Assembly: GCF_006345805.1 (NCBI RefSeq)
Contig: NC_043009.1
Coordinates: 23,188,001 to 23,252,000 of the forward strand
Length of the DNA: 64,000 nt
Source: Octopus sinensis
Taxonomy: Eukaryota
Reading direction: 5' to 3'
Part shown: in pieces, positions 20,570 through 26,941 of the stretch
Numbering within the stretch: position 1 is the first letter of the stretch
Layout: each line of letters starts with the position of its first letter
Position numbers and translations under genes: made by a program
Notes under the pieces: generated by a model
Told to the model about the DNA's origin: nothing
Seen by the model: only the letters and a program-made list of their open reading frames with translations
The model's database searches: none

Positions 20570-20717
20570 ATCTATCTATCTATCTATCTATCTATCTATC
20601 TATCTATCTATCTATCTATCTATCTATCTATCTATCTATCTATCTATCTATCTATCTATCTATCTATCTATCTATCTATTTATCTATCTATCTATCTATC
20701 TTTCTATCTATCTCTCT
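20570..20717. repeat. (TATC)n microsatellite at the 5' flank of the LINE
   Basis: Visible directly. Confidence 0.97.
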
Positions 20718-20930
20718 GGACAGACGCAAGTCAAATGGGCTCCACGTAAGTTGGTAGTTTTCTACGTTTAAAATTGTTGATTGTCAAACATTTTATGTCT
20801 AAAAGGTGTACAACAATACCCAACACATACTTTCATTAACATCCACACAGAATTTCGCCCTTTGTGGGCAAAATTAAAAAAAATTCTCAAAGGCTTCGTG
20901 GTTTTATTTTAGCCATTTTTATTTTCAAAA

Positions 20931-23041
20931 ATGGCTACTAGTCACCACGAGGTCAAAACGCAAGTCAAGCGTGACGGCCAAACAAAAGAGCAATATTCCT
21001 TGCAACCAAATGCTGAACCTGACAGTTCGAACGCCACTAACACCACCTAAACCACCACCACCACCACCACCATCAGCATCAACAACAGCAACAACTACAA
21101 AACCAGGCCGTCCACCGTCACCGCCACCAATGATTCCACCATCAACACCGACACCACCACCATAGAAGCTTCTGCTACTACAACTGCTTCCTCTGCTAAC
21201 GATTCCACTACCAACAACAACAACAACAACAAAACCAAGATCGCAAGACCAATCCCCGTCACCGCAACCAATGATTCCACCATCAACACCGACACCCTCC
21301 TTGACAACGCTTATGACGTTGATTTCCCCATACTGCTTTCATCACAATTTCATAAAGGAGGGGAAATGGGGGAAAACAACACGAACACAAATGTGAGCAT
21401 GAACGCTAACATCGCGACCTCCACTCAAAAACTGGTAAACAACCCGACTTCACAGTTATCTACTACTACTAGGAACGACTCTACCACAAACATCACCACG
21501 ACCACCACCACCACCTCCACAAAAAAACAATTTCGCGGAAGCCATACGACCGAAAAGAAGAATCCTAAAATTTACTCACCAACAAATACAAGACACAAAG
21601 TCCTTGCTCACCAAAAAAGGCGACGCAATGCGTTTAAATATTCCACGGAACATCATAGAAGAAATACAAAAGAAGACCATCATTTACAGAATACTAAACA
21701 CCAAAACAAAAAGACCAGAAAGCCCACCTACAGAAAAAATTGAAAAGTGCCTCTCTTCCGTGTGGAAATTCCGAAATCATGTGAATTGGGGAAGTAAATT
21801 TGCTACCGTGCAAGTTCGCTTCCATACGGAAGAACTAGCAAAAAAGTTTTCAACGCTTACTCTGCGCACTGACCAGGTAACAATGGTACCTAGCTACCTT
21901 GGGCGCAGAGTAACTAAAGTTACAATAAACAATGTGCCTCCAGTAGTGGGTACCCAGTGGCTGGTATCGGCCATCTGCTTCGATATAGAAGAAGCAGATA
22001 TTTTAGAAATAGCTGACACTCCAGAGGAAAGCTGGGCTGGAAAAAACTCGAATATTGCTTCAAATCTCCCAAGAAGCAATAAGCAATTTACCAACCAGTG
22101 TTCAACTGGCAAAAGATCAAAAATTGTATGTAGTGGTGGAGGGCAGGAGGCCAAGATGCTATTTATGTAACAGTGAGGCACACCTTATATACGAGTGCCC
22201 AACGGCTGTCAGAAATAGGCAACAGCAACAGCAACCACTCCCAAAACCTGGAAGAAAACCCCTGCTACCCACACCACCTTCAACCCAAAAGACAGGAAAA
22301 ACAGCGGACGATACAAAAACTGTTTCCCCCTCACCAACCACATCACCAAGAAGAAAATTACCTTCGACATCACAACCAGCAAGAGAAACAACATCAGCAC
22401 CAACATCAAAAGATAGACCAACACCAACACCAACACCAGCACCAAGAACAACAACCAAGAAAACAAAAAACAATGATGAAAAGACAAATTCTGCCCCTAA
22501 TACCCCAACAACACAAACACCACACAAAACAACGACACCTTCTACAAACACACATATAGATCCAAACGCTTTGCCTTTACCCCCTTCCGATTCATCAGGC
22601 TTTTCGTCTAACGACGAAAGTTCGACAGAGTGACAAATAGCCACCGGGGGTAAAAGAAAAAGATAAAAAAACAAACAAGAAAATGCAACTAAAGCAGGGA
22701 GATATCTGAACCCTGAAAGCTCCTCACACAACCAAACCAGCACCAACACTACAAAAATACACACAGCGATAGACACCAAAGACTCCAAACTAATGAAGTA
22801 CATCACAACCTACACAAACATCTGTGAAGATGACTTCAAAACTAACAACCATCCACGCACTACACCAGCAGAACACATCAAAATACTCCACATCACACAA
22901 ACACAACACCACACACTCAAAGTCCTCTTTCTAAATGCGGTTGGAGGGTTCCAAAAGTTTCTTTCAAAACAACTCTATAAAAACCTCCTCCCAGACACAC
23001 CAAAGGACGAGGAAGCCAAAACTTTCAACACAGGTAAATAA
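20931..23041 (+). pseudogene. LINE ORF1 (Thr/Pro-rich, RRM-like region, CCHC zinc knuckle)
   Basis: ATG at 20931 is in frame with 21366; contains RRPRCYLCNSEAHLIYECP (C-x2-C-x4-H-x4-C). In-frame stops at ~21048, 22631 and ~22665, plus two frameshifts. Confidence 0.8.
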
Positions 23042-23091
23042 CTCTCTATACTTTTCCTTTTGTGTTTTAAAGCACACGCCTCAAAAGGATC

Positions 23092-26000: not shown

Positions 26001-26495
26001 GCTACCGAGAAGCGCCACCCGTTCGGGATAAGCTCTATAGGCATGGCTCGAGAAACACGGGTCCGACCTACCCGAGATGCAGGCAGAGCGACGAAACCGT
26101 TCTGCACGCACTCGTACAGTGTCCAACAATCTCCGACCTGTGGGCTTATGTCGAACGACTGCTGTCACGTGTGGGACGAGTCGGTTTATCAGCTGAGTCT
26201 ATCGTCAATATTGAAGGAAGGAGGCGTTCCTTCCTTCAAACGGGAAGGAAGAGCTATTTTATCATACTTGTGGCTATGGCGAAAGAATGTATCTGGTGGA
26301 CGCGCCTGAAAGGATTAGAGACAAACACTTTCCTCTCTGGTCAATCTCTCATCAAATTCTTCAAGTATCACTTGAAAAGGAAAGTGATAGTAGAGAAGCA
26401 AGTTTTGTCTAGCAAATGTTTAAAAAAAAGAATGGGTGAATGTAGCAAGGATGGCACGTATGAATGACGAAGCCACCTTGACTATGATACTATGA
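23092..26495 (+). pseudogene. LINE ORF2 (APE endonuclease, reverse transcriptase, C-terminal Cys/His motif)
   Basis: APE motifs NARGL, ISET, GDWN, SYLDR, TDH; RT motifs KSPGLDG, NFRPITLLNADLKI, LDQSKAFDRV, VRQGCSLS, YADN; C-terminal PRC…ETVLHALVQC. Several frameshifts. Confidence 0.95.
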
Positions 26496-26838
26496 ACCGT
26501 TAAAATTAATACAGAGAGTTGCTTATTTGTAAAAAAAATATAACATGTGACTTCATTGGCCGAGGTTACCGTGGTCTTTTCCGTAGGCTTTTCTTTCCAC
26601 GGGATAACCTCACCTGTCCTCCCCTTTACACTTTATATTGACATTTCTGTGATAACGATCCCTATTGATCGATTTTTTCTTTTTCCTTTTATTTTATTCC
26701 CCTCCCTTTTTTTCCTCTTTCTTTTTACGATCCCTTTTGATCGAAAACCAAACCCCCTTTTTTCTATCCCCAAAAGAAAAGCTCCACCTTGTAATTTGTC
26801 CCGTCTTTGTGCAGCCCTGTGTGGCTAATAAAGAAACA

Positions 26839-26941
26839 TATCTATCTATCTATCTATCTATCTATCTATCTATCTATCTATCTATCTATCTATCTATCTA
26901 TCTATCTATCTATCTATCTATCTATCTATCTATCTATCTAA
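26839..26941. repeat. (TATC)n microsatellite at the 3' flank of the LINE
   Basis: Begins 6 nt after AATAAA, with no poly(A). Confidence 0.97.

Follow-up and report, generated by a model that had tools for sequence, protein, structure and literature searches.

The element in the window

The window, that is the whole stretch analysed, was C13:23188001-23252000 (64,000 nucleotides) of the 2.72 Gb Octopus sinensis genome. A full-length, inactivated LINE (family A) and the 5' fragment of a relative (family B) lie on its forward strand. Their features are given below in window coordinates.

20570..20717, + strand: (TATC)n upstream of the LINE, first half of the target microsatellite (TRF period 4, 37 units, 96% matches)
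20718..26838, + strand: family A LINE, L1/Tx1-type, full-length, inactivated, with the shared 5' and 3' termini
20931..23040, + strand: ORF1, broken by stops and frameshifts (ATG at 20931; 735 aa in intact copies)
22157..22198, + strand: zinc knuckle (CCHC) in ORF1 (Pfam zf-CCHC_3, weak at E=0.008)
23092..26495, + strand: ORF2 with APE, RT and zf-RVT, broken (Pfam PF03372, PF00078, PF13966; tblastn)
26827..26838, + strand: 3' terminus, AATAAA plus 6 nt, without poly(A) (identical end in 100 sampled copies)
26839..26940, + strand: (TATC)n downstream of the LINE, second half of the target (TRF period 4, 25.5 units, 100% matches)
62040..62077, + strand: compound (TC)n/(TATC)n tract ahead of the second element
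62079..63212, + strand: family B 5' fragment, 5' UTR and decayed ORF1 (own-family alignment ends near 63212)

The original prediction described an APE-type LINE flanked on both sides by (TATC)n in the same orientation, and both tracts were recovered by TRF at 20570-20717 and 26839-26940. The 3' end was likewise as described: AATAAA at 26827-26832 is followed by GAAACA and then directly by TATC, without poly(A). The 5' end of the window copy was common to at least 40 of the genome matches listed. In full-length family A copies (L061-L090, L376, L378, L383), the 5' terminus consists of a variable number of short GGAC/GACA units. The window copy is about 90-92% identical to young copies of its family. 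The end of its ORF1 at 23040 was estimated from an intact copy; the intact 735 aa frame is present in L376 and L378, and intact copies have an ORF2 of 1,152 aa. Pfam domains of the window copy (Exo_endo_phos, RVT_1, zf-RVT and a weak zf-CCHC_3) were found in pieces across several frames. When the intact ORF2 was aligned by tblastn, its counterpart in the window appeared as four pieces spread over three frames, and part of the RT region was deleted. Since ORF1 is broken as well, the element at 20718-26838 is a dead copy.

Two further frames were noted near this element. By eye, the 275 aa frame at 16194-17021 looks like the end portion of a Penelope-like element, GIY-YIG motif included, and the 171 aa frame on the minus strand at 27944-28459 looks like a piece of a PIF1-type helicase as in Helitrons.

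The second element had been predicted to be a diverged relative beginning right after (TATC)n, and it is one. The fragment, about 1.1 kb long, is preceded by (TC)n and some 5 TATC units, begins near position 62079, and has ORF1 pieces that are 35-58% identical to those of the first element. Among the 30 best family B 5'-end matches (window copy counted in), 25 had TATC in the 30 nt upstream. The head of family B is a short sequence behind TATC, unlike the GGAC/GACA units of family A.

Genome-wide copies and their flanks

An exact 27-mer from the 3' end gave 4,555 genome matches and its reversed control gave 0. A looser 3'-end motif, which included related subfamilies, occurred 10,962 times and was directly followed by at least four perfect TATC units in 4,466 cases. 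Perfect (TATC)4+ runs start at 91,487 places genome-wide; directly behind the 3' motif, such starts are enriched about 24,000-fold over their genome-wide density. The reciprocal share, 4,466 of 91,487 run starts behind a family 3' end (4.9%), is a rough figure because interrupted tracts were counted repeatedly and decayed ends were missed. On C1, a copy preceded 3 of the first 30 run starts, at two loci.

Junctions were sampled from the first 100 27-mer matches in position order, which cover the first 66 Mb of C1; the exact 27-mer requirement favours young copies. For the 5' junctions, up to 6.7 kb of upstream sequence was taken and mapped against natural copies. A junction was scored positive when two tandem TATC units lay within 30 nt of it. 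Ninety-eight copies were usable; one was dropped for an N gap and one for an inversion running off the locus. Two pairs in the sample have common flanks and are not independent.

TATC was present at the 5' junction of 81/98 copies (83%), at the 3' junction of 85/98 (87%) and at both in 72/98. The reverse (GATA) orientation was found in 0/98. The background was obtained by scoring 30-nt segments in the same way: 32/4,266 were positive in the whole window, 18/3,676 outside elements in the window and 267/22,606 in the distal flanks (overall 0.5-1.2%). Family-wide insertion into (TATC)n, which the original prediction had proposed from a single copy and its relative, was thus upheld by the tabulation of flanks.

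All 13 full-length copies had TATC at the 5' junction. Had the repeat been a mere 3' tail or a coincidence, most truncated copies were expected to lack it there; 68 of the 85 had it in the same orientation, including 54 of the 61 that were at least 330 nt long. The truncation points were scattered from 72 to 5,323 nt from the 3' end. Nine copies had TATC on the 5' side alone, and the length of the perfect 3' run lay anywhere between 0 and 10+ units, which is what insertion at varying points of a tract would produce. The 17 copies scored negative at the 5' junction were inspected by eye. Four were alignment overshoots into TATC, four had degenerate pyrimidine repeats, one lay directly behind another copy, one had a reversed fragment and seven had no repeat; four of these seven bear TATC on the 3' side only (4/98). 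Among the 30 best family A 5'-end matches, one of them the window copy, TATC was seen upstream by eye in 28.

Clusters of the family were observed at L210, L038/L156, L057, L114, L116 and L166. They are chains of truncated ends with TATC between them, newer copies being inserted in the tract behind older ones.

A full 1,152 aa frame was found in six of the 150 best APE matches. Among 20 long-frame copies compared, both frames (735 and 1,152 aa) were kept in L376 and L378, which are 99.6% identical over 3 kb; L376 lies on the minus strand at C7:31415631-31423031. YADD was present in 20/20 long-frame copies and all five checked APE motifs in 17/20. Family A has likely been active recently. Contigs from four sequence runs covered the 3' region but bore nothing usable on RNA ends or flanks, and they do not enter the evidence. 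The reconstructed endonuclease once proposed for nicking assays was dropped from consideration, because intact natural copies exist.

Junction structure: target or tail

Target duplications starting at the T right after the terminal A were identified in c38, c46, c66, c70, c92, c96 and c23. Their lengths ranged from 11 to 18 bp (11 bp in c38, c66 and c96, 16 bp in c46, 17 bp in c92, 13-18 bp in c70). The duplication of c9 is at least 81 bp. Interrupted tract patterns were repeated on both sides of c9, c46, c70, c92 and c96.

Off-target copies were defined by a 3' end followed by TAT and then non-repeat sequence (TATDV); there were 77 of them, versus 4,405 ends followed by TATC. Thirty of the 77 were examined and 25 junctions were resolved. 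Six of the 25 had target-site duplications of 10-14 bp without TATC tails (1.2% in mismatched pairs) and 19 showed no duplication. The minimal nick site is not measurable from this set because it was picked for its TAT start. At 14 duplication-less TATTA junctions, TATTAT was read in 12, versus 48% in the background (p=0.004). Long (TAT)n stood at the 3' end in 3 of the 30 off-target loci (L403, L404, L419). At L419 the 5' flank is free of (TAT)n, possibly marking a newly made trinucleotide tract.

Forty-nine clean truncated junctions were collected, from which 9 with extra or degenerate bases were removed. At least 2 nt of microhomology to the repeat was found at 14 of the remaining 40, versus 13% in simulation (p=3e-4).

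Two copies carry TATC of their own. In c40, the element end is separated from a 25 bp duplication by 16 nt of TATC (four units); the repeat can thus arrive with the RNA or be added. In c38, a full-length off-target copy, about 14 nt of TATC lie within its duplication at the 5' end; the 5' TATC of full-length copies can therefore be RNA-derived. The 3' flank of c40 (L101, C1:28724075-28731301) also holds a TATC tract followed by an inverted GATA copy with matching interruptions, a fold-back.

TATC is mostly a pre-existing target rather than a tail, because it is present upstream of 68/85 truncated copies and off-target copies lack TATC tails; the exceptions show that the element can also carry or add repeat units. 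An obligatory TATC tail was ruled out by the off-target copies that have duplications but no TATC tail. The original prediction had further suggested that the family could help to seed or extend these tracts. Extension stood, as the target duplications exemplify. Seeding is minor at most (4,466/91,487 run starts): the family mostly uses existing tracts, since only 4.9% of perfect run starts come after an element. The element as main source of TATC tracts was ruled out, about 95% of perfect run starts having no exact end motif ahead of them.

Classification and relatives

Family A has the layout of the L1 group: two ORFs, an ORF2 with N-terminal APE, RT and a C-terminal cysteine-rich domain, and no LTRs. 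The best PDB match of a family copy was human L1 ORF2p (E=3e-51). Signs of target-primed insertion were 5' truncation (85/98), target-site duplications, 5' microhomology and inversions (5' inversions in L012-L014 and c22). A 3' poly(A) tail is typical of L1 proper; none was seen at the 100 sampled 3' junctions, and the copies of the sister lineage described below are also without poly(A). A CCHC zinc knuckle in ORF1 is typical of the Tx1 clade, and the intact ORF1 of family A carries one (CX2CX4HX4C).

An RT tree was made with a quick IQ-TREE run (64 rows, SH-aLRT support only), leaving out 4 deleted copies and, by thinning, 31 further rows. Families A and B were joined first (99), followed by the sister lineage with two cephalopod-like proteins (99) and by ENA/JGI proteins (100). 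Family A lay within a 60-row group (SH-aLRT 97) that holds the U2-flanked L225 and L227, not as their sister. Among the 120 proteins listed by one database search, no named Tx1, Kibi or Koshi protein was found and the only species names were Argonauta and Lerista; further protein searches gave either no hit or Lerista again. Argonauta hians supplied the nearest named protein (74% across a portion of the RT region), and the nearest non-cephalopod relatives (P0002-P0088) were mostly 39-50% identical over the RT region. Only generic RVT_1/Exo_endo_phos clusters were returned by the ESM Atlas. A metagenome scan gave 54 more distant loci, among which TRF reported no TATC array.

Matches to U2 snRNA were found on the metagenome contigs L225, L227 and L256; in L225 and L227 the LINE is directly followed by U2. 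Keno is a Tx1 element that targets U2 snRNA, and from the U2 flank we infer that L225 and L227 are Keno. They have the same ORF2 layout as family A, an RT about 40% identical and a place in the same broad tree group, but differ in target (U2), in whole ORF2 (27-30% identical) and in subclade. Membership of family A in the Tx1 clade is likely, judging from these U2-flanked relatives rather than from named Kibi or Koshi sequences. A further LINE contig, L226, ends in poly(A); close to its 5' end is a stretch that resembles the beginning of U1 snRNA (no match in Rfam at gathering score).

A sister lineage as internal control

A sister lineage (ORF2 57% identical) was found in the same genome by search with a U2-flanked metagenome element. 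Its 3' end is similar, with AATAAA and no poly(A), and TATC followed 0/28 detected ends (30 loci). At the hairpin loop of the APE domain, family A and three family B copies have NR[S/I]G, and 6/6 sister copies have NSDG. This difference might be tied to the target, but it is a lead only, since the lineages differ at many other points as well. The hairpin loop has been described as a graftable element of target choice in L1 and Tx1L; grafting altered the nicking profile, and loop flexibility was held by the authors to outweigh loop sequence (PMC1950540, part of the text).

The sister lineage (loci L305-L354, e.g. C3:123752302-123760134, C7:96725192-96733024 and C9:660051-667877) is young, with many intact ORF2 frames (1,121-1,176 aa) that are up to 99% identical. 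Copies were seen head-to-tail, right behind the 3' ends of other members, and several unlinked copies had the same 3' flank. Rfam and ARAGORN, run at 18 and 20 sister loci, detected no RNA gene, so the target is not an obvious RNA gene. It may be the termini of related LINEs or another repeat.

Mechanism and alternatives

We consider it probable that family A inserts in pre-existing (TATC)n, its APE nicking the GATA strand and priming at the element end being helped by UAUC pairing. Cutting of the GATA strand by the APE endonuclease is the likely reason why copies lie inside TATC tracts in one orientation. Reverse transcription would be primed at the nick, which is predicted at 5'-GATA/GATA-3'. 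As AAUAAA would lie 6 nt ahead of the element end, the transcript would extend by a few UAUC units. By pairing with the nicked GATA primer, these units would make cDNA synthesis begin at the element end and bypass any poly(A). Another nick, placed some 10-18 bp downstream and in some cases at a much greater distance inside the repeat, would produce the target duplication and a longer tract. At truncated 5' ends, the junction has 1-4 nt of microhomology to the TATC flank. The flank distribution, the orientation, the duplications, the microhomology and the intact copies were observed directly; the nick site, the RNA end and the pairing are the putative steps. The APE domain alone might set the specificity, and RNA-primer pairing may contribute to it. 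The copies without a 5' repeat (7/98), the off-target copies without duplication (19/25) and the element-borne TATC of c40 and c38 speak against the endonuclease model.

Alternatively, targeting could be set mainly by RNA-DNA pairing, a loosely specific nuclease (about TA or TAT) nicking widely and only (GATA)n-ending primers pairing with the UAUC repeats of read-through RNA and being extended. Such a scheme would suit the absence of poly(A) although AATAAA lies 6 nt from the end, the four extra TATC units ahead of the c40 duplication, and the TATTAT excess at duplication-less TATTA junctions, which hints at an RNA end UAU copied twice. It would also have a precedent in the pairing with downstream target sequence reported, in the part of PMC7265360 consulted, for R1Bm and SART1Bm; these serve as a model for RNA end pairing with a nicked target, but belong to another clade with other targets, and pairing in family A would be by analogy. 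Against it stand the off-target copies that have duplications but no TATC tail, the sister lineage, whose end is similar but whose APE loop and flanks differ, and the Tx1L endonuclease, which is sequence-specific in vitro by itself (PMC1950540, part of the text). Moreover, the loose nick site that it supposes cannot be read from off-target copies chosen to begin with TAT. We regard pairing as the main determinant as rather unlikely.

Far less credible is an element-made tail, as in microsatellite-tailed RTE, with the element a main source of tracts. The 3'-only TATC of 4/98 copies, the long (TAT)n at 3/30 off-target loci and the TATC borne by c38 and c40 are in its favour. It would have to derive the 5' tracts from reverse-transcriptase additions or later expansion. 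In RTE-type elements the repeat is absent at 5' junctions, whereas family A has 5' tracts at 68/85 truncated copies with scattered cut points and 5'-only tracts in 9 copies. Interrupted patterns duplicated on both sides (c9, c46, c70, c92, c96), truncated off-target copies with duplications and no TATC at either end, and run starts that are about 95% free of an exact end motif (3 of the first 30 on C1 behind a copy) also contradict a tail. Chance or passive retention might be invoked for a genome so rich in microsatellites (187 TRF tandem-repeat rows in the window, 91,487 perfect TATC run starts in the genome). It was rejected, and deserves practically no credence, on the background (83% versus 0.5-1.2%), the orientation (0/98 reversed), the exact 3'-junction phase in 4,405 copies and the sister counts (0/28).

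Known microsatellite-targeting LINEs

Kibi, on (TC)n, and Koshi, on (TTC)n, are Tx1-clade LINEs of teleost fish (PMC4494074, PMC3812793, parts of both texts). Family A resembles them as an APE-type LINE in the pyrimidine-rich strand of a microsatellite, but its junction repeat is TATC, not (TC)n or (TTC)n, and its host is a mollusc; it is set apart from them by target, not by comparison with the named sequences. Crocodilian Tx1 families prefer (TTCC)n or (TTTC)n, tetranucleotides too, but the unit of family A contains A. The bar of that paper, more than 20% of flanks with one repeat, is exceeded by family A at 83% of 5' and 87% of 3' junctions (PMC4494074, part of the text).

Waldo, Mino and Dong, of the R1 and R4 clades, are also microsatellite-targeting non-LTR elements, and their units differ from that of family A. 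They target (ACAY)n, (AC)n and (TAA)n, respectively, and the target list in the consulted part of that review comprises ACAY, AC, TC, TTC and TAA (PMC3812793). Togen targets (TG)n (PMC4640811, part of the text). In the parts consulted of octopus and mollusc repeat papers, L1-Tx1 elements are given without targets or are unmentioned (PMC13282606, PMC10294476, PMC9115989, PMC4758252), and the portion of PMC8869645 consulted held nothing further on L1-Tx1 targets. A full-text literature search, with Repbase and Dfam outside its scope, returned no TATC/GATA-targeting LINE; a prior curated record of the family is quite possible. TATC is a new target unit for a kind of LINE already known, and the surprise is limited accordingly by the general phenomenon.

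How APE-type LINEs recognise microsatellites is not well understood (PMC3812793, part of the text). In the octopus, about 11,000 3' ends can be recognised, rare off-target insertions lay the junction structure open, and intact copies exist beside a 57%-identical sister with other flanks. With these resources one could test directly whether specificity comes from the endonuclease loop or from RNA pairing. TATC/GATA markers in the octopus group would be expected often to have repetitive LINE flanks.

A bolder reading, doubtful on balance, is that a still-mobile lineage switched to (TATC)n through its hairpin loop (Arg versus the Asp of the sister) and now both lives on its own target and makes it larger. 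If so, each insertion would split and partly duplicate a tract (by more than 80 bp in one copy), new units would come from read-through RNA or from repeated copying, and rare off-target events would found new (TATC)n or (TAT)n tracts. The TATC and sister lineages, both with intact young copies, would then lend themselves as a natural pair to the mapping and reprogramming of APE specificity.
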